A DNA stretch of 62,999 nt from Myxococcota bacterium (GTDB lineage: Bacteria > Myxococcota_A > UBA796 > UBA2385): NCBI GenBank assembly GCA_964226865.1, contig CAXQUZ010000359.1, positions 1 through 62,999 on the forward strand, written 5' to 3'. Below are positions 29,904-48,324 of this stretch, piece after piece. The first letter of the stretch is position 1. Each line of letters starts with the position of its first letter. The notes under the pieces are model-generated. The model had not been told where the DNA came from. It ran no database searches and worked only from the letters and a program-made list of their open reading frames with translations. The translations under genes were made by a program, and so were the position numbers.

Positions 29904-29969
29904 GGTCTGCTCCCTTCCAGGACTGCGGGAACGGATCGGTGGCCGCTTCGGGGCAGCGCACGGGCCCAG

Positions 29970-29993
29970 AAATCCTGCGCTGGCGCAGGATTT
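29970..29993. promoter_or_regulatory. Perfect 11-bp inverted repeat, candidate operator
   Basis: AAATCCTGCGC-TG-GCGCAGGATTT lies in the 278-bp divergent intergenic region between the kinase start (29903) and the acyl-CoA synthetase start (30182). Confidence 0.45.
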
Positions 29994-30181
29994 ACCGGCG
30001 CGGGCGTCGCTGGCACGGGGGCGGGGCCGCGCCCGCGGGACGGGCGCCGGGTGTCGGAGATCAGCGTGCGTGCGGGTCTCCCTGCGAGACCGGGCGGGCC
30101 CTGGTGCGCAGGGGGCCGCGGGTGCGATGGTGGGATCCCGGCTGCGCCCGCGTCCGGATCGCCCCCCTGCCCGGAGCCCCG

Positions 30182-33197: not shown

Positions 33198-35009
33198 TCA
33201 GGGGCGCGGGGGGCCGCTCGCGAGGGCCTGGCGCAGCAGGGTGAAGAGCGCCTCGGGCAGGAAGGGCTTGGCGAGCACGGGGTAGGGGGCCAGCCACCCG
33301 GGGCGCTCGGCGTGGGCGGTCATGAACACGAAGGGCCGCCCCGGGAAGTCGGCCACCACGGCGGCGCCGCCCCCCCGGGGCATCGACAGGTCGCAGAGCA
33401 CGACGTCGACGGGCGTGTCTTGGTGGTCGCGGGCCTCGACGGGACCGGCGGCCGTGCGCACCGTCCAGCCGTCGTGGCTGAGGAGCCGTGCCGCGAGGCG
33501 GCGCACGGCGGGGTCGTCCTCGACGATGAGCACGGTGCGACCCGCGACGCTGGAGCGGGGGGCGGCCGGGGCCGCGGCCGCGGCGGTGGGCGCCGTGGCG
33601 GGCGGCAGCCGGAGCACCACCGTCGTCCCCCCGCCCGGGGTCTCGTCGAAGGCGAGGGTGCCGTCCATCTCTTCGACCACCCGCCGCACCATGGCCAGGC
33701 CCAGCCCCGTGCCCTTGCCCGGCCTCTTGGTGGTGAAGAAGGCCTCGCTCGCCCGGGCCCGCACCTCGGGGCTCATGCCTGCGCCGTGGTCGATGACCGC
33801 CAGCACGACCGTCTCGCCGTCCCGCCGGGTCTGGACGGTGACCCGGCCGGCGCCCGGTGTGGCGTCCCGGGCGTTGAGCACGAGGTTGAGCAGCACCTGG
33901 TCGAGCTGGCGGGGGTCGGCCCGCACGGTGGCGTCGGCGGAGGTGTCGACGGTGAGGGTGATGCGCTCGGGCAGGGCCGTCCGGAGCAGGCGCTGGCTGT
34001 GCTGGACCAGCCGGTCGATGGCCAGGGGCTCGCGGCGCTCGGGGGCCGGCCGGGCCTGGGCCAGCAGCCGCTGGGTGAGCTCGGCCGCGGCGCGGGTCGC
34101 CTGGAGGGCCTCGTCCAGCTCGGTGCTGGGGCGCTCGAGATCCGCCAGCATCACATTGCCCAAGATGACCGTCAGCAGGTTGTTGAAGTCGTGGGCCACC
34201 CCGCTCACGAGGCTGCCGAGGGTCGCGAGCGAGAGCTGGCGCTGCTGGGCCTCGGCGAGGCGGTGCTGGTCGGTCGAGTCGTGGACCACACACAGCGACC
34301 AGCGGGGGTTGTCGGGCACCTGGCGCAGGCTGAGGTGGAGCCAGCGCCGGGCCCCGTCGGGGCGCGCGATGCGCAGCTCGCAGCGGTGGACCCCCGGGGC
34401 GCTGGTGGCGACGAGGGCGTCGTAGCGGGCGCGATCTTCGGGGACGATGAGCCCGCGGAAGGTCTCGGGGTCGACGGGGCTGTCGGGGGCGAGGCCGGCG
34501 ATGCGCCGCAGCTCGGGGGTCCAGGTCACGGTGCCGGTGCCCGGGCGCCAGACCCAGCTGCCGACGTGGGCCATCTGCTGGGCCTGCTCGAGGGCGTAGG
34601 CGTGCTCTTCGAGGGCCGCCCGGGTCTCGTGGATGTGGGTGCGGTCCTGGATGGTCCCGACCATGCGCAGCATCTCGCCGCCGGGACCGCGCACGGCCAC
34701 GGCCTTCGAGACGACGTGGCGCACGGCCCCGTCGATGATCAGCCGGTAGTAGACCGGGGCCCCCACCTCCGAGCTGATGGTCGCCTGGAGCGCGGACTGG
34801 AAGTGGTCGAAGTCGTCGGGGTGGACGCAGGTGAAGAAGAGCTCTTGGGAGGGCGGGACGGCATGGGGCTCGAGGCCCAGCAGCCGGAAGCAGTTGTCGG
34901 ACCAGAGCACCTCGCCGGTCTGGAGGTCCCAGGAGTAGCTGCCCAGGCCGGCCACCCGCTCTGCCTCGTCGGCGAGGGCCCGGCGCACCGCCTGTTCGTC
35001 TCGGTCCAT
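33198..35009 (-). CDS. Hybrid sensor histidine kinase (2 PAS, HisKA, HATPase, receiver)
   Basis: ATG at 35009. Two PAS-like modules are present. The H-box is GVAHDFNNLLTVILG, the N-box is LNLVLNARDA, and the G-box is GTGLGLAMV. The C-terminal receiver is VLIVEDDPAVR...VVLCDLSMP...KPF. Confidence 0.9.
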   Translation of the reverse strand: MDRDEQAVRRALADEAERVAGLGSYSWDLQTGEVLWSDNCFRLLGLEPHAVPPSQELFFTCVHPDDFDHFQSALQATISSEVGAPVYYRLIIDGAVRHVVSKAVAVRGPGGEMLRMVGTIQDRTHIHETRAALEEHAYALEQAQQMAHVGSWVWRPGTGTVTWTPELRRIAGLAPDSPVDPETFRGLIVPEDRARYDALVATSAPGVHRCELRIARPDGARRWLHLSLRQVPDNPRWSLCVVHDSTDQHRLAEAQQRQLSLATLGSLVSGVAHDFNNLLTVILGNVMLADLERPSTELDEALQATRAAAELTQRLLAQARPAPERREPLAIDRLVQHSQRLLRTALPERITLTVDTSADATVRADPRQLDQVLLNLVLNARDATPGAGRVTVQTRRDGETVVLAVIDHGAGMSPEVRARASEAFFTTKRPGKGTGLGLAMVRRVVEEMDGTLAFDETPGGGTTVVLRLPPATAPTAAAAAPAAPRSSVAGRTVLIVEDDPAVRRLAARLLSHDGWTVRTAAGPVEARDHQDTPVDVVLCDLSMPRGGGAAVVADFPGRPFVFMTAHAERPGWLAPYPVLAKPFLPEALFTLLRQALASGPPRP

Positions 35010-35214: not shown

Positions 35215-36801
35215 TCAGGGCGCGACCGCGACCTCCCCGTGGCAGGTGGTCACCGAGCAGTAGAAGGCGGTGCCGGTGATCGTGGCGGCCGCGGCCGTGG
35301 TGTCGCCGCGGCGGGCGAAGAGGGCGAGGTCGGGGGCCGCGCTGCATGCCGCGATCGGGCTGGTCGCGGCGACGGCGGCCCCGGCGGCCTGGCAGCCGGC
35401 GAAGGACAGGGCCCCCGACCCGGCGATGGCCGCGGTGGCGCCGCCCGTGTCGGCCCAGTTGTCGTCCCAGGCAGACACGAGCCCGGTCTCCTGGCCAAAG
35501 CAGCTCAGGTTGCCCTCGGTGTAGACGGCGCCGCCGGCGTCGGCCCGGTTGGCCGTGGCCCCGAGCCCCGTGACGAAGCTGTCGGTGCCGGGCCCCAGGT
35601 AGAGTCCGCCGCCGTAGCGGTTGCCCCAGTTGTCGTGGAGCGAGACCGCCCGGGCGTCGAGCCGGAAGCCGCTGCCGTAGAAGGCCAGGCCCCCGCCGGT
35701 GGCCGCGCGGTTGCTCTCGAAGTCCACCGAGACCATGCGCAGGCCCGAGAACTCGACCAGGGCGCCGCCGCCTGCGGTGTCGTCCCCGCCAGTGTTGTGG
35801 GCGAGGCGGCTGTCGGCCAGCTCGAGCGGGCCCACGCTGCCGGCGTAGAGACCGGCGCCCCCCACCGAGCCGGCGCTGGCGTGGTTGCCCGTGATGACCA
35901 GGGCCGAGAGCTCGGCGCTGGCGAGGCCCGAGAGGTGGAGGCCCCCCCCGGGCACGGTGGCGGTGGTGACGCCGCCGGTGAGCACGAGGCCCGAGAGCAC
36001 GGCCCGGCCGCCCGTGCCCGAGAGCTGGACGGTGGGGCCGGCGGTGGTGGAGGCGGCGCCGTTGAGCACGGGCCAGGTGTCGGCGGCGGCGAGCCGGTCG
36101 GTGTCTCCGGTGTCTCCGGTGTCTCCGGAGTCGGTGGAGTCGGCGGAGTCGGCGGAGTCGGCGGAGTCGGGAGGGACGCCGGTGTCGCCGGAGTCGAGGG
36201 GCACGGCACGGCCGATGATGTGGAGCGCGGCCACGTCGCCCTGGACGATGCGCACCCGGTAGGGGGCGGCGCCGCGGCAGATGTCGAGGCGGCCGGCGGC
36301 GGCGAGCTCGACCCGGACGGGGGCGTCGCGGCTGTCGGTCGGGAAGTCGGCGCTGCGGTCGACGGGCGCGCCGCCGTCCGGGGTCCAGGTCACGACGCCC
36401 AGCTCGTCGGCGGGCTGCCAGCCGGGGCGGCAGCCGTCGTTGCGTCCGTTGCAGCGCTCGGTCTGGCCGGGGAAGACGGCGGGATCGGTGTCGTCGCAGT
36501 CGCCGGTGGTGGCGACCCAGCCGACCTGGCAGGCCCCGGCGGCCACCCCGCCGACGCCGTCCCCGTCCGCGTCGGGGGCGAGGCCCTCGTCCCGCTCGCC
36601 GTCGCAGTCGTTGTCGAGGCCGTCGCAGCGCTCGGGGGCGCCGGGGTGGACCGTGGCCCGGCGGTCGTCGCAGTCGTCGAGAACGCTGAACCCATCGTTG
36701 TCGTCGTCGACTCTTGCCCGCTGGTCTTCGGCGGTGATGAAGACACAGCCCGGCAGCAGCGTGGCGCCCAGCAGGGCCGCCCTGGCGGGGCGGCTCAGCA
36801 C
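35215..36801 (-). CDS. Lipoprotein: two MopE-type Cys-rich repeats, acidic DSAD/DTGD repeats, Gly-rich beta-helix-like repeats, Cys-rich C-terminus
   Basis: The GTG at 36801 overlaps the upstream stop (GTGCTGA). The lipobox is ATLLPGC. CDDRRATVHPGAPERCDGLDNDCDG is a MopE-type repeat. Recurring GGG(L/A)x motifs (GGGLHLSG, GGAGLYAG, GGGALVEF, GGGLAFYG, GGGLYLGP, GGAVYTEG) suggest a parallel beta-helix. Confidence 0.8.
   Translation of the reverse strand: MLSRPARAALLGATLLPGCVFITAEDQRARVDDDNDGFSVLDDCDDRRATVHPGAPERCDGLDNDCDGERDEGLAPDADGDGVGGVAAGACQVGWVATTGDCDDTDPAVFPGQTERCNGRNDGCRPGWQPADELGVVTWTPDGGAPVDRSADFPTDSRDAPVRVELAAAGRLDICRGAAPYRVRIVQGDVAALHIIGRAVPLDSGDTGVPPDSADSADSADSTDSGDTGDTGDTDRLAAADTWPVLNGAASTTAGPTVQLSGTGGRAVLSGLVLTGGVTTATVPGGGLHLSGLASAELSALVITGNHASAGSVGGAGLYAGSVGPLELADSRLAHNTGGDDTAGGGALVEFSGLRMVSVDFESNRAATGGGLAFYGSGFRLDARAVSLHDNWGNRYGGGLYLGPGTDSFVTGLGATANRADAGGAVYTEGNLSCFGQETGLVSAWDDNWADTGGATAAIAGSGALSFAGCQAAGAAVAATSPIAACSAAPDLALFARRGDTTAAAATITGTAFYCSVTTCHGEVAVAP
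36101..36172. repeat. Two adjoining 9-bp tandem repeat blocks (gtgtctccg x3; gagtcggcg-like x5) encoding DSADSADSADSTDSGDTGDTGDT
   Basis: Read directly from the sequence. The blocks are in-frame within CDS 35215..36801. Confidence 0.9.
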
Positions 36802-37793
36802 TGGGGCTCGGGGGCCAGCAGGGGATCGACGACGAGCCCGGGCACGGCGCCGAGGGCGGGCCAGGACACGTCGAGCGGCAGGCAGGCCGGGGCGCCCGCG
36901 TCGCCCGTGTCTCTGGCATCTCCCGTGTCTCCGGCATCTCCCGTGTCGTCCGTGTCGCCGGTGGCGCGCTGGTCGGCGCAGGGCTGGCAGGTGGCGCCCA
37001 GGGCCGCGAGCTGGGCGCAGGCGTTGACGCCGTTGCCGCCGGGCAGGGTGCGCAGGTCGATGTCCATGCGGAGCCGCAGCTCGTCCGCCCAGACGGTGCC
37101 GTCGTCGGCGAGGCGGAGGGTGGCCGTGATCTCGACCCCCTCGAGGTCGTACTGGCGGTCGGGGGGCTCGGCGAGGCGGAGGGTGGCCGGGCCCAGCTGG
37201 AGTGCGTCGCCGGTGCGCGACAGGGGCAGCGCGTCGGGCGCCACACAGCTGTGTTGCCAGGCCCGGTCGGCCGTGACCTCGGCGAAGCCCAGCCAGGCCG
37301 TGCCCGTGGCGTCGACCCCGATGAGCATGCCCGTCGCCTCGCCCACGAGCTCGCCCAGGGCCGCGGCGCTGGGGGGCGTGGTGAAGCTGTGGAAGCGGGC
37401 CTCGGGGTCGAGCAGGTCGGCCGCCCAGCTCGTGGCGGCGAGGGGCGGCACGGTGGCGGAGGCGGGCGCGCCGGTGGTGGTGAGGGTCCAGCGCTCCTGG
37501 ACCTCGCCGCACTGCTCGAGCAGGGCGGTGTGGACCGTGTCGGGGGCGAGGGTGACGGGGACGGCGCCCGAGGGGGGCACGGCGACCCAGCCCGGGGTGG
37601 CGCCGCCGTCGACCCACAGCCGGGACCGGTCGCCGCGGGTCTCGACCGTCAGGGTGGTCGGGCCGGGGGCGAGGGGGCCTGTGGCGGGCCCGAGCTGGGC
37701 CGGTGCGCTGCGGCAGGAGGCGGGGGCCGGGGCGCAGCCGGTGGCGGCGAGCGCGAGGGCCCCCCCGCCGAGCAGGGCGCGCCCGGGGCTCAC
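36795..37793 (-). CDS. Lipoprotein, hypothetical, with Cys-rich acidic DTGD-repeat C-terminus
   Basis: The GTG at 37793 overlaps the upstream stop (GTGA); the track start at 37808 is an alternative. The lipobox is LALAATGC. The C-terminus is CAQLAALGATCQPCADQRATGDTDDTGDAGDTGDARDTGDAGAPAC. Confidence 0.7.
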   Translation of the reverse strand: MSPGRALLGGGALALAATGCAPAPASCRSAPAQLGPATGPLAPGPTTLTVETRGDRSRLWVDGGATPGWVAVPPSGAVPVTLAPDTVHTALLEQCGEVQERWTLTTTGAPASATVPPLAATSWAADLLDPEARFHSFTTPPSAAALGELVGEATGMLIGVDATGTAWLGFAEVTADRAWQHSCVAPDALPLSRTGDALQLGPATLRLAEPPDRQYDLEGVEITATLRLADDGTVWADELRLRMDIDLRTLPGGNGVNACAQLAALGATCQPCADQRATGDTDDTGDAGDTGDARDTGDAGAPACLPLDVSWPALGAVPGLVVDPLLAPEPQC

Positions 37794-38908
37794 CACTCGT
37801 GCACCCACAGCGCCCCGGCGCCCAGCGCGCCCGCGAGGCTGAGCCCGGTGATGCCCGCGGCCCCGGCGAGGTGGTTGCGGCGCACGAGGGCGGCCTCGGG
37901 GCCGTCGGCGACGGTGCCGGCGCGGTAGTCGGCCCGGGTGGTGGCGGCGAGCACGAGGCCCGTGGTGCCGACGAGGGCGAGGCCGCCGGCGGCCCAGGCG
38001 AGGCCCCGCGAGCGGTGGCGGGGCAGGGCCGCGAGCGGCGGCGGGGCGCCGGTGGGCACGAAGATGAACTCGCCCGAGCCCTGGAGGTGGCCGAAGGCGG
38101 GGGTCTGGTCGTGGTGGCTGCGCAGCCAGGCGTCCTGGCGCACCTCGCGCTGGACCTGGACCGAGAGCTCGCTGGCCGTGCGGAAGGGGGCGGGCTCGTC
38201 GAGGGCCGCGAGCAGCCGGGCGGTGAAGACGCTGTGGCCGTCGGGCCCCACGTCCAGCACGGCCTCGTCGGCCTGGCCCGCCGCGAGCACCTGGAAGGCC
38301 GTGCGCTGGCGGTTGCGGGCCAGCCAGGCGGCGTCGTGGGGCGCCAGGTCCGGCGCGCCGCGGGTCGCGAGCATGCCGCCGTAGCAGGCGTCGACCACGA
38401 GCAGCCGGTGGCGGGCGGGGATGCTGCGGCCGATCAGCGTGCGGACACTCTCCATGGGAATGTCGTGCAGCAGGGCTTCTTCGGGGTCGAGGCTGCCGTC
38501 GTGGGGCACGAGGTAGCCGAGGGCCTCGCCGCTGGCGGTGTGGGTGGTGGTGCCGTGGCCGGCCCAGAAGACCACCAGGGCGTCGTCGGGCGACAGGGCC
38601 GCCAGCGACTGGAGGGCCGAGAGCACCCCGGCCCGGGTGGCGGCGTCGTCGTAGAGCTCGATGACCTCGTCGAAGCCGAAGCGCGTCCGCAGCCGGTGGG
38701 CGACGGCCGCGGCATCGGCGACGGCGTGGTCGAGGTCGAGGGCCTCGCCGGGATAGTCGCTGATGCCCACCACCAGGGCGACCTGGCGCTGGTAGAGGGG
38801 GGCCGGGGGGGCGGCGCCGGGGCCCGCCGGTGCGAGGCCGCGGGTGGGGGCGGCGGCGGCCAGCGGGGCGGCCAGGCGCAGGGCCAGGGCGAGCAGGGCG
38901 GGCGTCAC
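37790..38908 (-). CDS. Caspase-family (peptidase C14) protein with N-terminal signal peptide and two C-terminal hydrophobic helices
   Basis: The GTG at 38908 overlaps the upstream stop (GTGA). VALVVGISDYPGEALDLDHAVADA is a typical C14 N-terminus. The catalytic-dyad contexts are FWAGHG and LVVDACYGG. The C-terminal helices are GLAWAAGGLALVGTTGLVLAA and AAGITGLSLAGALGAGALWV. Confidence 0.85.
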   Translation of the reverse strand: MTPALLALALRLAAPLAAAAPTRGLAPAGPGAAPPAPLYQRQVALVVGISDYPGEALDLDHAVADAAAVAHRLRTRFGFDEVIELYDDAATRAGVLSALQSLAALSPDDALVVFWAGHGTTTHTASGEALGYLVPHDGSLDPEEALLHDIPMESVRTLIGRSIPARHRLLVVDACYGGMLATRGAPDLAPHDAAWLARNRQRTAFQVLAAGQADEAVLDVGPDGHSVFTARLLAALDEPAPFRTASELSVQVQREVRQDAWLRSHHDQTPAFGHLQGSGEFIFVPTGAPPPLAALPRHRSRGLAWAAGGLALVGTTGLVLAATTRADYRAGTVADGPEAALVRRNHLAGAAGITGLSLAGALGAGALWVHEW

Positions 38909-40647
38909 GGGGCGGCTCCGGCCCAGGCGGTCACGGCCGAGAGGGTGTAGGTGAGGGTGGTGGTGGCGCCGTCGGCGGTCCAGTCGCCGCGCAGGGGCGC
39001 CCCGTCGAGCCAGGTGGCCAGCGGCAGCGGGGCCCGGGTGGCGAGCAGCTTGAGGCGCTCGGTGCCCCAGGGCGGCACGGTCTGCCAGCAGCGGGGCGAG
39101 GTCCAGGCCTCGCCGGGGGCCAGCAGGGGGGCCTCGTCGTCGTCGAGGAGCGCGGTGGCCCGGTTGTCGGCGTCGAAGTGGACGAGGTGGATCCGGCGGG
39201 GGCCGGGGGCCGTGTGGCGCACCTCGACCGTGATGCCGGCCCCGGGGGGCAGCTGGAGGGCGCCGGTGGCGTCGGGCACCAGCACGGCGCCGGGGGCGCA
39301 GGTGGTGGGGTCGGCCGCGCGCAGGCGCAGGGAGGGGGACGGGCCGCCGGCGAGCTCGAGGGCGGCCAGCTCGGTGGCCCGGCGGCGGCGGCGCAGGGCC
39401 GTGGCCACGGGGCTGGTGGACCAGGGCGCCCCGGCGGGAGACCGGGCCAGCTCGGTCGCGCCCGCCCGCAACACCAAGGTCCCGGCCTCGCTCTCGGGCC
39501 CGGGCTCTGTGGTGAGCACCAGCGCGGCGGGGCCGGCGGTCCAGCCCTCGGCGGCGAGCAGGGGCAGGAGGCGGTCGTGGAGGGCCGGGGGCAGGGCGAG
39601 GCGGCGGGGGGAGGGGGGCGCACCCTCGCGCTCGACCCGCACCCGGGCGGCCGCCAGGGCCGCGGGGGGCGCCGCGCAGCCGGGCTGGAGGAAGGTCTGG
39701 CTGGCGGTGGTGGAGGCGACCGCGGCGGAGCAGACGCGGCCGTCCTCGAGGACCAGGGCGTAGCGGGCCCGGTCGTCCAGGCCGAGCAGGGTGCCGCCGG
39801 CGATGCGCAGCTGGAGGGGCGGGCCGGCCACGACGCCGTCCACCGCGAGGCCGCCGGCCGCCGGGGCATCCGGGGCGAGGGGCAGGTGGCCGGCGCCCAG
39901 GAGCACGGGGTGCTGGGCGGGGGCGGCCTGGGCCAGGGCGGCCTGGATCCGTGCGTGCACGGTGGACCAGGTGGCCCCGGCGGGCGCCCGGACGAGGGCC
40001 TCGGCGAGGGCCTGGGAGAAGCGCCCGCCGCCGCCGGGGGCCTCCTCGGCCAGCTCGTCGGCGCGGGCGGCCGCCAGGATGGTGACCGGGGCGAGGGCGT
40101 CGGCGGGGCGGACCCACTCGTGGCCGAGGGTGTCGGCGCCGGGCACGGCGGGCCCCGAGCCCCGGGCGGCGGGCTGGAGCCCCCGCAGCAGCCCGCCGCT
40201 GTGGCAGGTGTCGAGGGTCAGCACGAGGTGGCCCGCGGGCCCCAGGGCGCGCCGCAGCTCGGTGAGGGCCGCGCCGAGGGCGTCGTCGCGCACCACCCCG
40301 CCGTCCGTGAGCAGCAGGGCCTCGTCCCAGCCGTCGGCCTCGTCCCGGTCGTCGTCGGCCACCCGGGTGCCGTGGCCCGAGATGTGGACCCACAGCCGAT
40401 CTCCGGGGGCGAGGCGGCGGGCCTGGGCGGCGAGGGCGGCCGCTGGGTCGGCCGTGGCCGCGGCGCGCTCCAGTGCGGTCGGCCCGAGGGGGCCTGCGGC
40501 GGCGGCCGTGGCGAGGCGATCGAGGTCGCGCCCCAGGTCGAGGGCGGCCGCGCTGGGGGGCGGGGGCACGGCCATGAGGAGCGCGTGCTGGCCGGCCGCC
40601 GCCGAGAGGGCGAGCCAGGGGACGGCGGTGAGCAGGGACGGGGACAT
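38905..40647 (-). CDS. Caspase-family (peptidase C14) protein with signal-peptide-like N-terminus and ~330-aa uncharacterised C-terminal region
   Basis: ATG at 40647, inside the much longer spurious ORF 38905..41793. The N-terminus is MSPSLLTAVPWLALSAAAGQ. The dyad contexts are VHISGHG and LTLDTCHSGG. Confidence 0.85.
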   Translation of the reverse strand: MSPSLLTAVPWLALSAAAGQHALLMAVPPPPSAAALDLGRDLDRLATAAAAGPLGPTALERAAATADPAAALAAQARRLAPGDRLWVHISGHGTRVADDDRDEADGWDEALLLTDGGVVRDDALGAALTELRRALGPAGHLVLTLDTCHSGGLLRGLQPAARGSGPAVPGADTLGHEWVRPADALAPVTILAAARADELAEEAPGGGGRFSQALAEALVRAPAGATWSTVHARIQAALAQAAPAQHPVLLGAGHLPLAPDAPAAGGLAVDGVVAGPPLQLRIAGGTLLGLDDRARYALVLEDGRVCSAAVASTTASQTFLQPGCAAPPAALAAARVRVEREGAPPSPRRLALPPALHDRLLPLLAAEGWTAGPAALVLTTEPGPESEAGTLVLRAGATELARSPAGAPWSTSPVATALRRRRRATELAALELAGGPSPSLRLRAADPTTCAPGAVLVPDATGALQLPPGAGITVEVRHTAPGPRRIHLVHFDADNRATALLDDDEAPLLAPGEAWTSPRCWQTVPPWGTERLKLLATRAPLPLATWLDGAPLRGDWTADGATTTLTYTLSAVTAWAGAAP

Positions 40648-40893
40648 GGCGGCGGCGGCTCCCGGCAGGGGAGGGGACGGGGGGCAGGGCGCCGGGCCAG
40701 GGCGCGGTCCCGCAGGCAGGGCGGGGGCGCCGGGCCCCCCACCGGGATCCTGTGGGGGCCCCACCATAGCGCGGGGACCAGGGGCGCTGGGGGCCATCCG
40801 GGCCGGTCGTGGGCGGGAATCCCGGATTTTCTTCGGGGGCGTTTCGTCCCGCTTCGCCGCAGCGAATGCCCGACCGAGACCCGGAGCTGTGCC

Positions 40894-41877
40894 ATGTCCC
40901 TGCCCGCTGCCCCCCGCCTGGCGCCCGTCCCCCCCACCGCATGCCGCCGCGATCCCTGCGCCGCCCCCGGGGAGGGGCGCGCCGGCGCTGCGGCGGGTCC
41001 GGGGCCTGGGCGGCCCGCGTGGGTGCCGGGCGGGGCGGAGGGGGCGGTCTGGCTCCCGCTCGGCCTCCACGCGGGCCGGGTGGTCGGGGTGGGGCTCGAG
41101 CAGTGGTCTGACCGGGGGCCCCTCCCGGGGGCCGCGGCCCTGCTCGTGGTCGCGGTCACGGGGCCCGCCCTCGCCCGGGCCCCCGGCGCCCTCTGCGGGC
41201 CCGGGGCCGGGGGGCCGGGCTGTCCGAGCGCCGCCGGCAGCCCCCGCGAGGTGGGGGCGGGCGGCCTGTGCTGGGTGGTCTCGGGCCGGGACGGGGCCGC
41301 GGGGGCCTGGGCCGGCCGGGCCGCCGAGGGCATGGTGCTGCGGGACGGCCAGCTGCGGGGCTGGCTGGCCGTGGCCGGGCCGGCGCCCCGGGCCCTGTGG
41401 ACGGCCGCCGCGGCGGCCCTGGCCGCCCGCCCCGCCTGGCCCCGGACGGGCCCCGCCCAGGCCCTCGTCGACGGCAGCGGTGCGGTGATCTGGGCCGATC
41501 CCCCCGGCCGGCGCTGGATGGCGGCCCCCGGGCGCCGGGCCCAGGTGGCGGCCCTGCTCGCGGCCGGTCGCCAGCACTGGGTGGACGGCGCCGCCGTGCG
41601 CGTCGGCTGGGGCGCCGGCCGGGACGGGGCCCTGGCGCTGATCTCGGTCGTCCCCTCGGCCCCCGTGCCGGCCCCGCCGGTGGCGGCCCTCACCCCCGGC
41701 CAGTACCGGGTGGCCGTCCGGGCGGCGGCGGGGTGCACCGTGGCGGAGATCGCGGCCGAGACCGGCCGCAGCACGCAGACCGTGCGCTCCCACCTCAAGG
41801 CGGTCTACCGTCGGCTCGGGGTGACCAGCCGGGTCGCCCTCGTCCGGTGCTTCGGGGCCTGGGGAGGAGGGGCATGA
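40894..41877 (+). CDS. LuxR-family transcriptional regulator with uncharacterised N-terminal domain
   Basis: ATG at 40894 and uniformly high GC3. The C-terminal HTH is LTPGQYRVAVRAAAGCTVAEIAAETGRSTQTVRSHLKAVYRRLGV. Confidence 0.8.
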   Translation: MSLPAAPRLAPVPPTACRRDPCAAPGEGRAGAAAGPGPGRPAWVPGGAEGAVWLPLGLHAGRVVGVGLEQWSDRGPLPGAAALLVVAVTGPALARAPGALCGPGAGGPGCPSAAGSPREVGAGGLCWVVSGRDGAAGAWAGRAAEGMVLRDGQLRGWLAVAGPAPRALWTAAAAALAARPAWPRTGPAQALVDGSGAVIWADPPGRRWMAAPGRRAQVAALLAAGRQHWVDGAAVRVGWGAGRDGALALISVVPSAPVPAPPVAALTPGQYRVAVRAAAGCTVAEIAAETGRSTQTVRSHLKAVYRRLGVTSRVALVRCFGAWGGGA

Positions 41878-42800
41878 TGGGGGGCATGGCCGCGCTGCCG
41901 GCGGAGGAGGCCGAGCTCTGGGCCCGCTGGGCCCACGACCGGGAAGACGCCGCCGCCGAAGAGCTCTGGCGCCGCAGCCAGCGCCTGGCCGTGGCCGTGG
42001 CCGCGCGGGCCCTGGGCGGGCTCAGCAACCCTTGGGAGCGGGCCCGGGGCATCGTCGACGAGGCCTTCGTGCGGGCCCTGGGCAGCTTCGACCCCGCCCG
42101 GGCCCCGGCCGCGAGCGCCCAGCCCTTCCGGGCCTGGTTCCTGCGGCTGGTCCGCAGCGCGGTCGTCGACCACCGGCGCCGGGCCGCCCGAGAGGTCGAG
42201 CTGGTCGACCTGCCCGTCGCCGCCCAGGAGTGCCCCCAGCCCGCCCCCGAGGTGGGCATCGACGCAGCCCGGCTCGTGCGCCAGCTCGAGCGCCTCAACG
42301 CCGAGCAGGGCCTCGCCGAGGACTGGCCCGTGCTGGTGGCCTGGCTCCAGTGCCGCCACGACGGGGTGCGGGTGCCCTGGAAGTCGCTGGCGGCGGCCCA
42401 TCCTGTGCAGCCCCCCGACGACCTCCGCTTCGCGCCGGGGGCCGCCTCCCTGCCCGAGGGGGCCCCGGGGCTCGCGGCCGCCGCCCGCAAGCTCGCCCTC
42501 TGCCCCCGGCTCTGCCTCGCCGCCGACGGCAGCAGCGCGCCCCCGGAGGGCCCGGAGCTGGGGCCGGCCCGGGCCGAGGGGGTCGTGGAGGCGCTGGTGG
42601 CGTGGCTGCGGGTGCGCCGGGTCCACCACGGGGGCGTGGCGATGGAGCGGCTCGTGGTCGGCGGCGCCGAGCGGGGCCACCGGCGGGTGCGCTTCCGGGT
42701 GGAGGCCGGGGCCCAGCGCAGCCCCGATGCGCTCCGGATGCGCGTGGAGAAGGTCATCTTGGGCAAGTTGCTCGCACTGGTGGACGGAGGTGGACGATGA
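41874..42800 (+). CDS. Sigma-70 region-2-like (ECF-like) protein with long atypical C-terminal half
   Basis: The ATG at 41874 overlaps the LuxR stop (ATGA), with GGAGGAGG upstream. The ...VDEAFVRAL...FRAWFLRLVRSAVVDHRRR pattern resembles ECF sigma region 2. I recognised no clear region 4. Confidence 0.6.
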   Translation: MMGGMAALPAEEAELWARWAHDREDAAAEELWRRSQRLAVAVAARALGGLSNPWERARGIVDEAFVRALGSFDPARAPAASAQPFRAWFLRLVRSAVVDHRRRAAREVELVDLPVAAQECPQPAPEVGIDAARLVRQLERLNAEQGLAEDWPVLVAWLQCRHDGVRVPWKSLAAAHPVQPPDDLRFAPGAASLPEGAPGLAAAARKLALCPRLCLAADGSSAPPEGPELGPARAEGVVEALVAWLRVRRVHHGGVAMERLVVGGAERGHRRVRFRVEAGAQRSPDALRMRVEKVILGKLLALVDGGGR

Positions 42801-43522
42801 GCGGAGCGGTGGAGACGGAGGCCGCGGCCCTCTGGGCCTGGCTGGCAGCACCCGACGAGCCGCCGCCGCCGGCGGTCGCGGCGCTGCTCGCGGACGAGGC
42901 GGCCCTCGGTGCCCTGGTCGCGGCCCTCGAGGTCTCCGCCCCCCCGGACGACCCGGCCGGGCGCTGGGCCTGCATCGCCGACCGGCTCGACCGGCCCGTG
43001 GCGCCCGCCGGGGTGTCGCCGGCCCTGCTCGACGGCCTGCACGCGGCCCTCGCCCCGCCCGCGCCCCTGCCCCGCCCCGCCCCCCGCGGGGGGCGCCGGT
43101 GGCGCGTCGGGGTGGCCCTGCTCGCGGCGGCGGTGGCCCTCGTGGTCTTGTGGCCCCGCCCGGCCCCCACCGTGCTGCTGGCCCCGGGTGAGCTGGTGCC
43201 GGCCGCTGCCCCCACCACCCGCGGCACGGGTCCGGTGGCGGCGGCGCTGGGCCCCGTGCTCTCGGTCCGCGCCACCGTCGGGGCCGGCGGGCTGCGGCTC
43301 CAGGTCTCGGCCACCCCCGGTCCCGAGGGGGTGCCGGTCGATCCGGGCTCGCTGCGCCTGGGCTACGGCGGCCGCGACCTGACCGCCCGGCTGGGCGCGG
43401 TGGCCCTGCCCCTGGATCGGTCGGGGCTCCAGCTCCCGCCGGGTCGCCACCGCTTCACGGTCTCGGTGGCCGACGTGGCGGGCCAGCGCAGCGCCCAGAC
43501 CCTCGAGGTGGTCGTGCCCTGA
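42797..43522 (+). CDS. Single-pass membrane protein in anti-sigma position, with Ig-like C-terminal domain
   Basis: The ATG at 42797 overlaps the upstream stop (ATGA). The TM helix is WRVGVALLAAAVALVVLW. The C-terminus GRHRFTVSVADVAGQRSAQTLEVVV looks beta-sandwich-like. Confidence 0.6.
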   Translation: MSGAVETEAAALWAWLAAPDEPPPPAVAALLADEAALGALVAALEVSAPPDDPAGRWACIADRLDRPVAPAGVSPALLDGLHAALAPPAPLPRPAPRGGRRWRVGVALLAAAVALVVLWPRPAPTVLLAPGELVPAAAPTTRGTGPVAAALGPVLSVRATVGAGGLRLQVSATPGPEGVPVDPGSLRLGYGGRDLTARLGAVALPLDRSGLQLPPGRHRFTVSVADVAGQRSAQTLEVVVP

Positions 43523-43539: not shown

Positions 43540-44910
43540 TCAGTCGGCCGTGCTGCCGCCCTCGGCCCGGGGCTGGCGGCGCCGGATGCGCATGGGCAGG
43601 CCGTCCTTGAGGGTCAGCACCCCCTCCATCTCCCAGCGGGCCTGGTAGCCGGGGCGCAGCTCGGGGGCGAAGCGCTGGGCCAGCACGGCGAGCAGGATGT
43701 GGCTCTCGAGCAGGGAGAAGTGGTTGCCGAGGCAGGTGCGGGGCCCGACGGCGAAGGGGTGGTAGGCCCCCGGGTGGCGGTCCGGGTCGTCGCCGTCCAG
43801 CCAGCGCCCCGGGTCGAAGCGCTCGGGCGCGGGCCAGTGCGCCGGGTGGCGGTGGGTGAAGTAGGAGGCGAAGAGCAGCGGTGTGCCCCGGGGCACCTCG
43901 TGGTCGCCGATGACGTCGTCCTCGACGGCATCCCGGGCGTAGAAGGGAATCGCCGGGTAGAGCCGGAGCACCTCTTGGATGACGGCGCGGGTGTAGGGCA
44001 GCCGGCGGAGGTCGTCGGTCGTCGGGGGCCGGTCGCCGAGCACCTCGTCGAGCTCGGCGTGGAGGGCGGCGGCGACCTCGGGAAAGCGCGCCAGGGCGTA
44101 CCAGGCGAAGGTCATCGTGCGGGCCGTGGTCTCGTGGCCCGCGAAGAAGATGGTGATGGACTCGTCCCGCAGCATCTCCTCACTCATCGGCGCGCCGGTG
44201 TCGCGGTCGCGGGCCCGCATCAGGCGGGTGAGCAGGTCGTCGGGCCAGTCGGCCTCGTCCATCGCCCGGCGCTCGGCGATGATGCGGGCGGTGAAGGCGT
44301 GGGCGAAGTCGCGGGCCCGCCGGTAGCGCAGGTTGCCCGGGGTGGGCACCCACAGCGGGATGTCGGGCATGACCATGCGGCGGTTGACGAAGCCGACCAT
44401 GTCTTGGACGCAGGTGCCGACCCGGTGGATGTCTTCGGGGGAGGCGGTGGTGAACATGCCGCGCAGGATGATGGTGGCCGTCAGCCGCGTCATCTCTTCG
44501 CTCATGTCTTCTTCGGTGCCCGCCGCGGCGAGGGCCTCCCAGCGGTCGAGGAAGCCGAGCGTGTCGCGCAGCATGAGGGCGGCGAAGGCCCAGACGCCGC
44601 TGCGGGTGAAGAAGGGGGCCATCAGCCGCCGCTGGCGCTTCCAGAGCTCGCCGTTGCTGGCCACGAGGCCGTTGCCCACGAGGTAGCGGCGCACCATGTC
44701 GTAGCTCTCGGCCTTGCCGTAGCGCTTGCGCCGCTCGACGTTGACCTGGTGCACGGCCTCGGGGCCGATGGCCACCAGCAGGCCGCGGCCGAAGATGCGC
44801 ACCATGAACAGGTCGCCGTGGTCGGCCCAGAGGCTGCCGATGGTGGCGAGGAAGCCCCGGGTGGCGAGGCGGTAGAGAAAGACGAGGGCGCGGGGGCCGG
44901 GCGGGGTCAT
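43540..44910 (-). CDS. Cytochrome P450
   Basis: ATG at 44910. The I-helix is FFAGHETT, the ExxR motif is in EVLRLYP, and the haem loop is FAVGPRTCLGNHF. Confidence 0.9.
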   Translation of the reverse strand: MTPPGPRALVFLYRLATRGFLATIGSLWADHGDLFMVRIFGRGLLVAIGPEAVHQVNVERRKRYGKAESYDMVRRYLVGNGLVASNGELWKRQRRLMAPFFTRSGVWAFAALMLRDTLGFLDRWEALAAAGTEEDMSEEMTRLTATIILRGMFTTASPEDIHRVGTCVQDMVGFVNRRMVMPDIPLWVPTPGNLRYRRARDFAHAFTARIIAERRAMDEADWPDDLLTRLMRARDRDTGAPMSEEMLRDESITIFFAGHETTARTMTFAWYALARFPEVAAALHAELDEVLGDRPPTTDDLRRLPYTRAVIQEVLRLYPAIPFYARDAVEDDVIGDHEVPRGTPLLFASYFTHRHPAHWPAPERFDPGRWLDGDDPDRHPGAYHPFAVGPRTCLGNHFSLLESHILLAVLAQRFAPELRPGYQARWEMEGVLTLKDGLPMRIRRRQPRAEGGSTAD

Positions 44911-45509
44911 CGGGCGCTCCCGGGCGGGGTGAGGAGGGGGGCGCCCACCAGGGCGAGGGCCTCGGCGAAGACGGCGCTGGGGGGGCCCGGGTGGTCGCCG
45001 AGCAGGGCCGTGCGGCCGGCGGCGACGATGAGGGCACCGGCGAGGCGGGCCTGGAGGGCGCCCGGCGCCAGCCCCAGCCGCGTGGCCACCAGCGCGGTGA
45101 AGGCCTGCTCGGCGTCGTCGAGCAGCTGCAGCCACACGGCCCGGTGGCGCTCGGTGCCCCGGAGCACGGCGAGGATCGCCGGGAGGTCGAAGTGGACGGC
45201 CAGGTCGAGCAGGCCGGCGTGGGCCGGCAGCAGCGCCGCGTGCAGGGGGCGGTCGGCGCTGGCCGCGGTGAGACCGGCGACCACCTGGGCCAGGCCGGCG
45301 CCCAGGTAGGGGCGCAGGGCGTCTTCCTTGCGGGGGAAGTAGCGGTAGAAGGTGCGCTCGGAGAGGCCGGTGTGGGCGGCGAGGGCCCGGACGGGGTGGT
45401 CGGTGTGGCCGTCGCGCAGGTAGAGCGCCAGCACGGCACGGGACGCGTCGAGAACGGCTTGCTCTCGGTCGTTGTCGGCGGAGAAGAAGGGCAGGCTGAC
45501 CGGGGACAT
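44907..45509 (-). CDS. TetR-family transcriptional regulator
   Basis: The HTH is HPVRALAAHTGLSERTFYRYFPRKEDAL. The stop overlaps the P450 start (ATGA at 44907-44910). Confidence 0.85.
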   Translation of the reverse strand: MSPVSLPFFSADNDREQAVLDASRAVLALYLRDGHTDHPVRALAAHTGLSERTFYRYFPRKEDALRPYLGAGLAQVVAGLTAASADRPLHAALLPAHAGLLDLAVHFDLPAILAVLRGTERHRAVWLQLLDDAEQAFTALVATRLGLAPGALQARLAGALIVAAGRTALLGDHPGPPSAVFAEALALVGAPLLTPPGSAR

Positions 45510-45634
45510 GGGGGGAGGGTAGCGGATGGTGGCAGTTTCTGCCAGGGGTCATGGTTGGGCCGGGGGCGGCCCTCCATCTTCGGTCAACCCCGGGGGACGG
45601 GGGGCCGATGGGCGGCCACAGCCGGAGACGACCC

Positions 45635-46081
45635 ATGCGCTGGACCCTCGAGACGACCATCGACATCGCCGCCCCGCCCGACCGGGTCTGGGACATCCTC
45701 GTCGACCTCCCGCGCTACGGCGCGTGGAACCCCCTGGCGGCGCGCATGGAGGGCCCCCTCGAGGTGGGGGCCGTGCTCGACATGACCGTGCGGCTCGGGC
45801 GCCACACCCGCCGCCAGCCCGCCGATGTCTTCGCCGTCGGCCCGGGCCACCTGCTCATCTGGAGCGGCCACTCCCTCAAGGGGCTGGCCGTGCGCGGGGT
45901 GCGCAGCCAGTGGCTCACCCCCACCCCCGGGGGCTGCCGCTACACGAGCCGCGAGGTCTTCACGGGGCCCCTGGCCGGGCTGACCCGGCGGCTGCTGCGG
46001 TCGACCCTCGACGCGGGCCTCCAGGAGATGGCCGTGGCCCTGCGGGATCGGGCCGAGGCCGGGGCGCGGGCGGCCGCCTGA
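45635..46081 (+). CDS. SRPBCC (START/polyketide-cyclase-like) ligand-binding protein
   Basis: Trimmed to the ATG at 45635. IDIAAPPDRVWDILVDLPRYGAWNP is a typical SRPBCC N-terminus. Confidence 0.8.
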   Translation: MRWTLETTIDIAAPPDRVWDILVDLPRYGAWNPLAARMEGPLEVGAVLDMTVRLGRHTRRQPADVFAVGPGHLLIWSGHSLKGLAVRGVRSQWLTPTPGGCRYTSREVFTGPLAGLTRRLLRSTLDAGLQEMAVALRDRAEAGARAAA

Positions 46082-46206
46082 GCCCGGGACCGCCGGGAGG
46101 CCCGATCGCCGGATCGCCCTCAGGGCACGGGGCCCCGGGCCGATGGTCCCGACGGGCGCGGTCGGCCGGATCGCCGCGGCGGCGCCCCGCTTGTGGGAGG
46201 TCTGCT

Positions 46207-48324
46207 GTGGTTGCTCTGGGATCCGGGTCTGCTGCCCGCCGCGTGCGCCGGCTCCGCGCCCCCGAGAGCCGGGGGCTGGTGATCTTCTGCCACGGGCTCG
46301 GGCTCCACGCCGACAAGTTCACCCCGCTCTACGGGCTCGTGAACCGCCTCGGCCACGACGTGGTCACCTTCGACGCCCCGGGCCACGGGGACGCGGAGGG
46401 CTTCGTGCTCGACAGCGCGACGGTGGACCAGGCGGCGGCGGCGGCCATCTCGGTCTACGCCCGCCACGCCCACGAGCGCCCCGTGCTGCTGGGGACGGGC
46501 TGCTTCGGGGGCTTCTTGATGCGGCGCATCATCGCGGCCGCCCGGGGCAGCGACTGGGTGCCGCCGGCCATCTTCTACTCGGTCGACTACATCCGGCTGC
46601 CGGCGCCCCTGCTGAGGGGGCTCCAGCATGACCGGGTGCTGCGCCTCCTCGACCGCTTCCGGCCCGGCTATGACCACCGCCGCCTGACCCACGCCTCGGT
46701 CGACGACGCGGACTTCATCGCGGGCGACCCGGCCGCCTGGACCCGCTTCCCCCTGGGCATGGGCCTCAAGCTCGCCCACGAGACCAACGCCTTCTACGAC
46801 GGGTTGGGGGACGACGAGCCGCCCCACGCCTTCATCGTGGGCAGCGACGACCGCCTCTCCCACCTGCCGCCCGTGCGCCGGGCGGGCCGGCGCCAGCCCG
46901 ACTTCCGGGTGTGGGAGGTCGCTGGCGGCCACATGCACCTGCACCGCGACCGTCCCGAGGTCCAGGCCCGCTTCGAGACCGCCCTGGCCGAGGCCCTCGC
47001 CTTCGTGACCACACGGGCGGGCGCCCGGGGGCTGCCGGACGGGCTGCCCGCGGCCTCCCTGCCGGCGCCACCCGAGGTCGCCCCGGCCGGTCCCCGGGGC
47101 CAGGCCCGGCTGCTCCGCCAGCTCATGGTCGATCCCGTCGGCCTCGTCGAGGAGCTCCAGGCCCGCCACGGCTCCCTCTTCACCGTGCGCATCCCCTTCG
47201 ACATCACCCCGCCCTTCACCTTTCTCACGACCCGCGAGGGCTACGCCAGCGTGCTGGGCCTCGACCCCGCGGTCGGCCGCAACGGCCCGGTCATCGACCG
47301 GGTGCCCGCCCTGGCCCACTGGACCCCCCGGAGCGACCCGAGCCCCGAGCACCTCCAGGAGCTGCTGCTCACGGGCCGGCGCCACATCGGGCGGCTGCTC
47401 CGGGGCCTGCCCTCGGCCACCATCGACGCGCGGCTGCGGGCGCGGGTCGCCCACCACGTGGCCCAGTGGCCCGCCACCCTCGACCTCGCCGACCGTCTGG
47501 TCACCCTCATCCACGACAGCTGCGCCCGCCTCGTGCTCGGCGATGCGCTCGTGGATGCCCTCGGGCCCGGCATGCTGGACGAGGTGCGCACGGTGGTCAA
47601 CGCCGTCGACGCGGCCCGGGCCGTGACCGCGCTGACCCCCGCCGGGCGGCTGCTGCCCGAGGCCCGGGCCGCCGCGGCCCTCGCCCGTCGGCTGCGGCGG
47701 GCCGCGCGGGACCCCCAGCTCCAGGCCACGCCCACCCTCGCCGGCCTGCGGGCGGAGCACCCCTCGCTGCCCGAGGACGACCTCGTCTGGATGCTCTTCT
47801 TCGCCCTCTGGAACGCCACCATCTACATGGGCACCTACGGCACCTGGTCCTTTCTCGACCTGCTCGCCCAGCCCGGCGCCGTGGCCGCCCTCGACGCCGC
47901 CCCCGACCGCCGGGCCCATCTCGTCGGGGGCATCCTCGAGACCATGCGCCTCAACCCCATCTCGTGGCAGCTGCGCGCCCTGGCCCGCCCCGTCGAGGTG
48001 ACCAGCGGCGGCCGCGCCCACCGGGTGCCCGCGGGCCACTTCCTCACGGTCTTCTCCCACGGCCTGAACCGCGACCCCGCCGTCTATCCCGCGCCCCTGC
48101 GCTGGGATCCCGGCCGCTACGCCGCGGGGGCGCCCCTGCCCCTGCTCTTCGGCACGGGCCCCTTCGCCTGCGTGGCCCAGTTCTTCGTGAAGCAGGTGCT
48201 GGCGACCATCCACGACACCCTGCTGGGCACGGTCTCGCTGCGCCTGGAGGGGCCCCTGCCGCCCCGGATGAGCCGGGTCCACCTGCTCTACCCGAGCGTG
48301 CCGGTGGTCGCGACGCGGGGCTGA
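46207..48324 (+). CDS. Fusion: alpha/beta-hydrolase (lysophospholipase/monoacylglycerol-lipase-like) + atypical cytochrome-P450-like domain
   Basis: GTG at 46207 with GGGAGG 6 nt upstream. The N-terminal ~270 aa carry GLVIFCHGLGLHADKF...FDAPGHGDAEG. The C-terminal ~430 aa carry ExxR (ILETMRLNP) and a Cys loop FGTGPFACVAQFF. The I-helix AGxxT consensus is absent (FFALWNATIY). Confidence 0.8.
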   Translation: MVALGSGSAARRVRRLRAPESRGLVIFCHGLGLHADKFTPLYGLVNRLGHDVVTFDAPGHGDAEGFVLDSATVDQAAAAAISVYARHAHERPVLLGTGCFGGFLMRRIIAAARGSDWVPPAIFYSVDYIRLPAPLLRGLQHDRVLRLLDRFRPGYDHRRLTHASVDDADFIAGDPAAWTRFPLGMGLKLAHETNAFYDGLGDDEPPHAFIVGSDDRLSHLPPVRRAGRRQPDFRVWEVAGGHMHLHRDRPEVQARFETALAEALAFVTTRAGARGLPDGLPAASLPAPPEVAPAGPRGQARLLRQLMVDPVGLVEELQARHGSLFTVRIPFDITPPFTFLTTREGYASVLGLDPAVGRNGPVIDRVPALAHWTPRSDPSPEHLQELLLTGRRHIGRLLRGLPSATIDARLRARVAHHVAQWPATLDLADRLVTLIHDSCARLVLGDALVDALGPGMLDEVRTVVNAVDAARAVTALTPAGRLLPEARAAAALARRLRRAARDPQLQATPTLAGLRAEHPSLPEDDLVWMLFFALWNATIYMGTYGTWSFLDLLAQPGAVAALDAAPDRRAHLVGGILETMRLNPISWQLRALARPVEVTSGGRAHRVPAGHFLTVFSHGLNRDPAVYPAPLRWDPGRYAAGAPLPLLFGTGPFACVAQFFVKQVLATIHDTLLGTVSLRLEGPLPPRMSRVHLLYPSVPVVATRG

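Follow-up and report, generated by a model that had tools for sequence, protein, structure and literature searches.

A sigma-like regulator and its membrane partner linked to a predicted envelope operon of two C14 peptidases and two lipoproteins in uncultured Myxococcota

The 62,999-nucleotide stretch of Myxococcota DNA considered here (contig CAXQUZ010000359.1 of assembly GCA_964226865.1, positions 1 to 62,999; hereafter the window) holds a module of two divergent arms: an operon of four genes (g1-g4) for two peptidases of the caspase family C14 and two predicted lipoproteins, and a regulator arm (r1-r3) for a LuxR-type protein, a sigma-like protein and a single-pass membrane protein. The favored reading, to which a probability of about one in two is assigned, is that r2 and r3, joined by r1 in some lineages, form a circuit of the sigma/anti-sigma type that is linked to an envelope protease-lipoprotein operon with four extracytoplasmic products. 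In the proposed mechanism r2 would be held at the inner membrane by the co-translated r3, and an envelope or external cue acting on r3 would free r2 in a partner switch; the freed r2 would then act on a conserved cis-element and on the g operon, raising transcription of the module. The soluble g1 and the membrane-anchored g2 would act on envelope proteins in the periplasm or at the cell surface, and g3 and g4 would be the most obvious candidates for substrates or scaffolds of the peptidases.

The argument for joining the two arms is comparative. The divergent arrangement of g1-g2, or g1-g2-g3-g4, against r2-r3 is kept in the window and in L003, L004/5, L009, L012 and, in part, L010 (Table 1), at 35–70% protein identity; as the adjacency persists down to 35–40% identity while the other flanks differ, it would be difficult to account for unless the arms were functionally linked. 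The synteny expected in the preliminary description, a set of remarks made from the letters of the window, was thus recovered in about six lineages with the exception of r1, and the conserved core consists of six genes, g1-g4 and r2-r3. Within this core the linkage of r2-r3 to g1-g2 is stronger than that of g1-g2 to g3-g4. The one apparent exception to the linkage of the arms is formed by L013, where a block of myovirus-type baseplate, tail and endolysin genes (L013:650-6718) ends about 300 bp upstream of g1, and L006, where about 240 bp separate r2 from the end of a phage replication block on its upstream side (L006:1-9761, with DnaB, DUF4031, zinc-binding proteins and HTH_17). Since the g proteins of L013 and the r proteins of L006 are both closest to L004, and the cis-element is kept on the g1 side in L013 and absent in L006, the likeliest explanation of the sequences is that a prophage was inserted into the divergent gap of this lineage, between the cis-element and r2.

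Members of the family are very rare. g1 has two full-length homologues among 5.8 billion proteins; r2 has seven homologues and occurs in 2 of 185,579 species representatives of GTDB, a metagenome-assembled genome (MAG) labeled 'Myxococcota bacterium' and another labeled 'Deltaproteobacteria bacterium'. In all, the carriers belong to about seven lineages of marine type, represented by uncultured Myxococcota/'Deltaproteobacteria' MAGs and metagenome contigs.

Table 1. Positions of the module's features in the window and gene order at the loci that carry the module or parts of it (aa, amino acids; <>, divergent arms)
Feature or locus	Position or gene order	Strand or direction	Description
g1	38905..40647	(-)	580 aa; predicted exported metacaspase/orthocaspase-like C14 peptidase
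g2	37790..38908	(-)	372 aa; C14 peptidase of a subtype other than that of g1
g3	36795..37793	(-)	332 aa; predicted lipoprotein of a small family without a Pfam model
g4	35215..36801	(-)	528 aa; predicted lipoprotein with two MopE-type Cys-rich repeats and a right-handed beta-helix
r1	40894..41877	(+)	327 aa; LuxR/GerE-type helix-turn-helix (HTH) regulator with an Ala/Gly/Pro-rich N-terminal region
r2	41874..42800	(+)	308 aa; sigma-like regulator with a sigma-2 domain and an OmpA-C-like domain
r3	42797..43522	(+)	241 aa; single-pass membrane protein in anti-sigma position
cis-element	40816..40867	(+), toward the regulator arm	AT-rich patch AATCCCGGATT, about 11 nt, CGTTTCGTC, 10 nt, GCAGCGAA
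Window	g4-g3-g2-g1 <> r1-r2-r3		complete
L003	r3-r2 <> g1-g2-g3-g4		no r1
L004/5	r3-r2 <> g1-g2		contig ends; no r1
L009	g2-g1 <> r2-r3		contig ends; no r1
L010	g1 fragment <> r1-r2-r3		partial
L012	g2-g1 <> GerE gene-r2-r3, then cysDN		most distant member
L013	g1-g2-g3-g4		phage baseplate, tail and endolysin genes upstream
L006-8	r2-r3		phage replication genes upstream
L014/15	g3-g4 only		no adjacent caspases

With a G+C content of 72–82% the window has long open reading frames (ORFs) in every frame, and the G+C content of third codon positions (GC3) was therefore used to pick the real ones. GC3 is 0.95–0.98 in the seven ORFs of the module versus 0.81–0.92 in the overlapping alternative frames, and the phase (frame) plot likewise agrees with all seven being coding, as had been supposed. 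The coding signal is blurred in the N-terminal half of r1 because the G+C content of second codon positions is unusually high there, and GC3 in the r1 frame is 0.96–1.0 from about position 41000 on. The stop/start overlaps that had been noted in both arms proved exact on checking the sequence (GTGA at 38905-38908, GTGA at 37790-37793 and GTGCTGA at 36795-36801 in the minus arm; ATGA at 41874-41877 and ATGA at 42797-42800 in the plus arm), as did the divergent gap of 246 bp between g1 and r1 (40648-40893). The module is flanked in the window by a hybrid histidine kinase gene on one side and by P450 and TetR genes on the other, and because these are unrelated to the genes that flank the other loci, the boundaries of the module appear to have been drawn correctly.

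Export and lipidation were judged from conservation across orthologues. All six g1 orthologues begin with a hydrophobic leader that ends in A-x-A directly before the first caspase strand, (H/R)ALL(M/L)GV, where the leader of L003 is counted by letting translation begin at an ATG that lies in frame 102 nt ahead of the called start. The g2 leader has 10–14 hydrophobic residues and A-x-A, followed by a conserved TRGL, in 5/5 sequences (window, L003, L004, L009 and L013). Conservation of these leaders bears out the signal-peptide-like N-termini that were first noted for the window copies and supports the prediction that both peptidases are exported. The two hydrophobic segments at the C-terminal end of g2, also noted at the outset, are kept in its orthologues and constitute a putative membrane anchor.

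Against the Pfam Peptidase_C14 cut-off of 21.4 bits (PF00656), g1 scores 28.5 bits and g2 scores 69.1 bits. The His/Cys residues proposed for the window copies fit the C14 catalytic dyad: H92/C148 of g1 (ISGHG/DTCHSGG) aligns with SGHG/DSCHSGG of Arabidopsis metacaspase-4 as well as with Geobacter GSU0716 (PDB 3bij), the best relative of g1 with a solved structure, H118/C175 of g2 (WAGHG/DACYGG) aligns with the same metacaspase-4 motifs, the Cys column being marked by the C139A crystal entry 6w8r, and both dyads are invariant across orthologues. The enzymes had been described as twins, which they are not; their caspase domains are 29% identical across 187 residues, and g2 lacks the acidic DExDGxDE segment that follows the catalytic His in g1 (ISGHGTRVADDDRDEADGWDEALLLTDG) and aligns there with its counterparts in metacaspase-4 and GSU0716. 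In metacaspases and orthocaspases this segment (GHG...D..DE.DG.DE...P.D) forms the S1/Ca2+ region associated with basic P1 specificity. By these sequence features g1 is metacaspase/orthocaspase-like and g2 belongs to another C14 subtype. Conservation within the module is highest for g2, which has 52–62% identity to the window copy and at most 72% among orthologues.

In g1 the leader is followed by the caspase domain (residues about 20-245) and by immunoglobulin (Ig)-like beta-sandwich domains, the last of which is DUF4384-like (about 465-545). An AlphaFold model built on a 3-sequence alignment has a mean predicted local distance difference test (pLDDT) value of 65, with 70–89 in the caspase core and the last beta domain; in Foldseek it matches 3bij (E 7e-7), metacaspases 4 and 9, the caspase-Ig3 part of MALT1 and caspases, and for its C-terminal part the matches are Ig-like sandwiches, including those of RhoGDI, UNC119 and filamin. 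DUF4384 (PF14326, gathering score 27 bits) is matched weakly, at 12.9–15.4 bits (E 0.02–0.12), but the match recurs at one position in 4/4 orthologues and spans almost all of the profile. The C-terminal region of g1, at first called unrecognized, can therefore be assigned to Ig-like sandwiches by fold search, with a DUF4384-like end suggested by these weak profile matches. Two cysteines of the C-terminal domain, C450 and C520, are invariant among orthologues. DUF4384 is catalogued as an accessory domain of orthocaspases and is the fifth most common in those of cyanobacteria (PMC8283722; also PMC7475262); since the combination of a caspase domain with DUF4384 is already catalogued, the architecture of g1 is a known type that carries an export leader.

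A deeper profile search made to enlarge the g1 alignment gave only one further match, a weak one, which led to an unrelated caspase pair at another locus of a related metagenome (L016:1882-9418). Here, two tandem C14 genes of 681 and 684 aa encode proteins that have no leader and begin at the caspase domain itself, and the pair is divergent from a VIT-VWA gene, a gene for a 189-aa Sigma70_r2 protein (26 bits) and a 79-aa ORF. L016 is a leaderless caspase pair, predicted to be cytoplasmic, and by its sequences a different system; a caspase pair beside a sigma-2 protein thus recurs in a different form.

The lipoprotein signals reported for g3 and g4 are conserved, and their lipidation is supported as a prediction. 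g3 has no match in Pfam or NCBIfam and 12 relatives among 1.84 billion representatives; all full-length members of this family keep the lipobox, together with a WVDGGxTDGW motif and seven invariant cysteines besides the lipobox Cys, which include C-x-P-C-x-D-Q and a C-terminal Cys placed at or beside the last residue after a conserved Cys-rich block. The lipobox Cys of g4 is followed by VFI(T/P) in 4/4 orthologues (LLPGC, LSASC, LGGC and LSQAC), the window copy having an atypical Pro at -2, and ten further cysteines are invariant in the same four sequences, with a conserved C-x5-C at the C-terminus. These conserved cysteines of g3 and g4 are more simply seen as disulfides. The adhesin-like g4 had been described as combining MopE-type repeats with a beta-helix: the repeats stand at 68 bits in the window copy (Cu-binding_MopE, PF11617, cut-off 27 bits), while the beta-helix passes its cut-off (Beta_helix, PF13229, 25.9 bits) in the L003 orthologue with 26.1 bits but is not reported for the window copy. 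Repeats of Chlamydia-PMP type, suspected in g4 by eye, were dismissed as the profile gives E-values of only 0.7–2.9, and matches to DUF7055 and DUF6426 were sub-threshold and were not reproduced in orthologues.

The lipoprotein pair also occurs elsewhere. In L014:9731-12282, and with the same genes in L015, g3-g4 follow a PAS-kinase-like gene and a gene for 165 aa, and the 10 kb upstream of the pair in L014 contain neither a caspase gene nor a sigma-like one; the two genes therefore form a separable unit, and to call them dedicated partners of the peptidases, as was done initially, is too strong. The window copies contain in-frame tandem arrays of 9 bp (about 12 copies at 36099-36196 in g4 and about 8 at 36893-36967 in g3) that encode acidic DSA/DTG tracts and are found in none of the orthologues. 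MopE-type repeats are typical of secreted proteins of Myxococcota, and a tblastn search with g4 residues 43-127 located two other coding regions for such repeats in the window, at 1673-2341 (-) and 17233-17886 (+).

Of the regulators, r2 and r3 belong to the core and r1 does not. The LuxR-type HTH seen in r1 is confirmed by a GerE match of 37.5 bits at residues 265-319 (PF00196, cut-off 23.5 bits), accompanied by a weak Sigma70_r4_2 match (E 1e-4), and residues 1-260 match no input-domain profile in Pfam or NCBIfam. L010 has an orthologue with 43% identity, and in L012 the corresponding place is taken by a GerE-HTH gene; L003, L004/5 and L009 lack r1. What was described as a private regulatory trio is therefore really a duo, r2-r3 being found in every lineage with the caspase operon and r1 in three only, and r1 is, to judge from these sequences, a clade-variable add-on between the cis-element and r2.

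The sigma-70 region-2-like nature claimed for r2 holds for its N-terminal domain. The window copy, with 23.3 bits, is just below the Sigma70_r2 cut-off of 24.0 bits; the profile matches 8/8 members of the family with a best E of 2.5e-7, and a sigma-4 profile matches 0/8. An AlphaFold2 model (pLDDT 82.8) gives an ECF (extracytoplasmic function)-type sigma-2 domain (residues about 10-108), a disordered linker, three helices and an alpha/beta domain that is OmpA-C-like (about 195-305). In Foldseek the first domain matches 4lup_C, the sigma-2 domain of E. coli sigmaE on -10 DNA, with a template modeling (TM) score of 0.81 and a root-mean-square deviation (rmsd) of 2.4 A, and other ECF sigma factors as well, and the second (window 42450-42797) matches OmpA-C, Pal and MotB domains with TM scores of 0.55–0.66 and weak E-values; one family member has a weak OmpA profile match (E 0.0097). 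What did not stand is the implied sigma factor as a whole, as sigma-4 is missing and the OmpA-C-like domain takes its place: r2 contains sigma-2 but is no canonical ECF sigma factor, and since it fails on sigma-4 it is filed here as sigma-2-containing only. The possibility that an invariant C-terminal helix (ALRMRVEKVILGKL) is the sigma-4 recognition helix, split off by an insertion, was rejected, as the model puts this helix inside the OmpA-C-like domain and no member of the family matches sigma-4. r2 has no signal peptide, so that a fold of the peptidoglycan-binding type is found in a presumably cytoplasmic regulator.

In every case r3 comes coupled to r2, in the window through the ATGA overlap. 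It consists of an acidic N-terminal region of about 80–100 aa, an Arg-rich stretch, a transmembrane segment at about 101-124 and a C-terminal domain that is rich in beta structure and has a weak Big_13 match (E 0.23). The single transmembrane segment is conserved in 6/6 orthologues, in agreement with the single-pass protein in anti-sigma position that had been proposed, and has Arg on its N-terminal side (N-in topology); the N-terminal domain is predicted to be cytoplasmic and the C-terminal domain to be periplasmic and Ig-like.

The cis-element lies in the divergent gap. Its composite, CGTTTCGTS-N10-GCMGCGAA, is exact at 40840-40866 and occurs once in the window, the chance expectation being 0.02 per 63 kb even with 2 mismatches, and it is exact again at the equivalent position in L003, L004/5 and L010, which makes four lineages with the window; variants are seen in L009 and L013. 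It is always oriented toward the regulator arm, with an AT-rich/GA patch about 11 nt upstream. The sequence resembles a -35/-10 pair of ECF type, with CGTC and ECF-like spacing, or an operator, and the regulator arm is probably autoregulated from it. As r1 lies between the cis-element and r2 in the window and L010, it would be co-transcribed and would have been gained or lost at that spot. A scan for promoters, including those of sigma-70 type, and for terminators found nothing, which is unsurprising at 80% G+C, and a global alignment of six intergenic regions was uninformative. A patch toward g1, TGCTAnnnT, was considered as a -10 box and set aside, as GCTA is expected about 0.5 times per region at this composition and no consistent -35 accompanies it.

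In comparing the module to known systems, PADLOC returns only its generic 'caspase' model and has no match for g3, g4, r2 or r3, and NCBIfam has no module-specific model. No literature source names the orthologues, within a limited full-text coverage that does not firmly exclude a prior description. To this extent the initial impression that the module is not a described system stands, and we could not find the combination of two C14 subtypes predicted to be exported, two lipoproteins, a sigma-2/OmpA-like regulator with a membrane partner and a cis-element described. Many of its parts are of known kinds: g1 is an orthocaspase with an accessory domain, g2 a C14 peptidase, r1 a GerE protein and g4 a MopE/beta-helix lipoprotein; g3 and r3 are without a family model.

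The closest relatives of g1 are bacterial orthocaspases such as GSU0716 (3bij), with which it shares the C14 fold, the dyad and the acidic DExDGxDE segment, 3bij being the best match in both sequence and fold. The 2012 survey of prokaryotic caspase homologues by Asplund-Samuelsson et al. is said to have noted signal peptides and transmembrane segments in some of them. What differs here is that two C14 subtypes stand side by side with export-type leaders, coupled lipoprotein genes and a linked sigma-like/membrane pair. A caspase domain followed by DUF4384 or by a transmembrane segment is a catalogued orthocaspase architecture (PMC7475262, PMC8283722), and the surveys consulted treat cytoplasmic or membrane-bound enzymes in the context of cell death and describe no such operon. 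MALT1, the paracaspase among the fold matches of g1, likewise places Ig-like sandwich(es) after the caspase domain (caspase-Ig3); however, it is a eukaryotic cytoplasmic signaling protease with N-terminal death and Ig domains, and only the C14 fold is in common, with a high rmsd. With gingipains and PorU (C25) there is a functional analogy only, that of clan-CD peptidases acting outside the cytoplasm on lipid- or surface-anchored proteins; the family is C25 and not C14, the module has no type IX components or signals of the C-terminal domain (CTD) type, and profile and fold searches gave no similarity.

On the regulatory side, the module is reminiscent of ECF divergons (sigmaE-RseA, SigW-RsiW, CarQ-CarR), in that a sigma-2 protein is coupled to an N-in single-pass protein, an envelope operon is divergent and an AT-rich plus CGTC element lies upstream. 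It differs in that r2 has 308 aa with an OmpA-C-like domain and no sigma-4, r3 has no recognizable anti-sigma domain or zinc motif, and a LuxR-type gene is placed between the element and r2 in three lineages. The two-subunit sigma factor SigO-RsoA of Bacillus subtilis offers another likeness, given the sigma-2 of r2 and the sigma-4-related GerE HTH of the adjacent, presumably co-transcribed r1, but there is no sequence similarity. A split sigma factor made of r1 and r2 is weakened as an idea, since at least three lineages have r2-r3 but no r1, and it is not a general mechanism.

Several observations weigh against the proposed circuit. With an OmpA-C-like domain in place of sigma-4, r2 may not be a sigma factor at all, and as a consequence calling r3 an anti-sigma protein rests on position and topology; neither an anti-sigma domain profile match (Pfam, NCBIfam) nor a zinc motif was recognized in r3. 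The cis-element is a single copy that points to the regulator arm only, no comparable element in the divergent gap points to g1, and its half-palindromic form (TTCG-N16-CGAA) makes an operator for another protein possible. The g2 leader is short and has no basic n-region, and PRxSR precedes the first of the C-terminal hydrophobic segments with its basic residues, so that by the positive-inside rule a cytoplasmic caspase domain fits equally well; the topology of g2, as judged from its sequence, is less certain than that of g1, the model of which is itself moderate given its pLDDT and small alignment. To these are added the occurrence of g3-g4 apart from caspases and the nature of the relatives, which are all contigs from MAGs or metagenomes and in several cases truncated.

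The components could also be connected in other ways. It is rather unlikely that the peptidases stand inside the signaling path, where g2, g1 or both would serve as a site-1 protease of the caspase family and cleave r3 in its periplasmic Ig-like domain, regulated proteolysis would free r2, and g3 and g4 would be sensors or modulators. It is established that periplasmic proteases can make the site-1 cut in anti-sigma factors (DegS/RseA, PrsW/RsiW), the envelope is where all components are predicted to come together, conservation extends to the periplasmic domain of r3, and the linkage of r2-r3 to g1-g2 is stricter than that of g1-g2 to g3-g4; however, there is no evidence of a cleavage site, the module encodes no site-2 protease, r3 has no similarity in Pfam or NCBIfam to anti-sigma factors known to be cleaved, and in divergent sigma/anti-sigma loci the neighboring operon is usually the regulon. 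A two-tier extracytoplasmic caspase cascade is somewhat less likely again; here g2 would be the initiator and g1 the executioner, acting in the periplasm on g3, g4 and the periplasmic domain of r3 and releasing a sigma-2/OmpA-C-like transcription factor that possibly binds muropeptides. The invariant Cys at or next to the C-terminus of g3, the C-x5-C of g4 and the translational coupling of g1-g4 bring to mind sortase-like transpeptidases or maturases, by which a C-terminal segment of g3 and g4 would be removed or exchanged and the proteins fixed to a surface polymer, and clan CD provides precedents in PorU of the type IX secretion system and the GPI8 transamidase; the reading is nonetheless improbable, as g3-g4 occur in L014/L015 without adjacent caspases, no known sorting signal is recognized by Pfam or NCBIfam, and disulfides account for the cysteines more simply.

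If the N-termini were no export signals, the peptidases could instead be part of a cytoplasmic conflict or abortive-infection system, comparable to the caspase/CHAT effectors of NTPase, CBASS, gasdermin and type III-E CRISPR systems. The generic PADLOC match, a match to the NCBIfam model caspase_w_EACC1, the prophage genes that abut the module in L013 and L006 and the ambiguous topology of g2 are compatible with this, but it is very improbable: the model concerned (NF047832; caspase, EACC1-associated) gives g2 72 and g1 24.6 bits against a cut-off of 140, no EACC1, NTPase, sensor, gasdermin, SAVED or CRISPR partner is seen in Pfam, PADLOC or the neighborhood, the A-x-A leaders are present in all orthologues in contrast to the leaderless L016 pair, the partners are lipoproteins rich in conserved cysteines, and the prophage looks like an insertion and not like a partner. 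Least probable of all is that the arms are neighbors with no regulatory link, r2-r3 controlling other genes and the g operon depending on another sigma factor, for instance the housekeeping one. The cis-element has no copy that faces g1, the scan found no sigma-70-type promoter and r2 has no sigma-4, all of which would suit such neighbors; divergent adjacency in about six lineages, at identities as low as 35–40% and among differing flanks, argues for a functional link between them instead. The preliminary description had also raised the possibility of envelope or kin-related killing, and no result here speaks for killing, least of all for the kin-related kind specifically.

The genes around the module in the window provide some further observations. 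A gene for a PAS-HisKA-HATPase-REC hybrid histidine kinase at 33198-35009 (-) is found on the strand of g4, 205 bp downstream of that gene, and in L003 a kinase/response-regulator pair is also located a few genes past g4. The neighborhood (25973-30341 (-) and 43540-48324) further contains genes for a RoxA-like di-haem cytochrome c and a CheA-like Hpt-HATPase kinase as well as a TetR-P450 pair. The ORF at 45526-48324 has both alpha/beta-hydrolase and P450 matches and is probably two genes, since the phase plot shifts frame near 46020-46320.

Bacterial caspase homologues have mostly been discussed as cytoplasmic effectors of cell death or defense. The impact of the present module is limited by its extreme rarity, with about seven uncultured lineages known to carry it, and its functional interpretation is drawn from sequence and models. 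Within these bounds, r2 raises two questions, namely whether a sigma-2 module can serve as a transcription factor without sigma-4 and what r2 senses. If the two-tier cascade were true, initiator/executioner caspase signaling would have an analogue in the bacterial envelope, and there would be a sigma-like factor that operates without sigma-4. More generally, the operon would suggest that social, predatory bacteria use caspase-family chemistry in their envelope, for which the lipoproteins encoded next door supply candidate substrates defined by adjacency.

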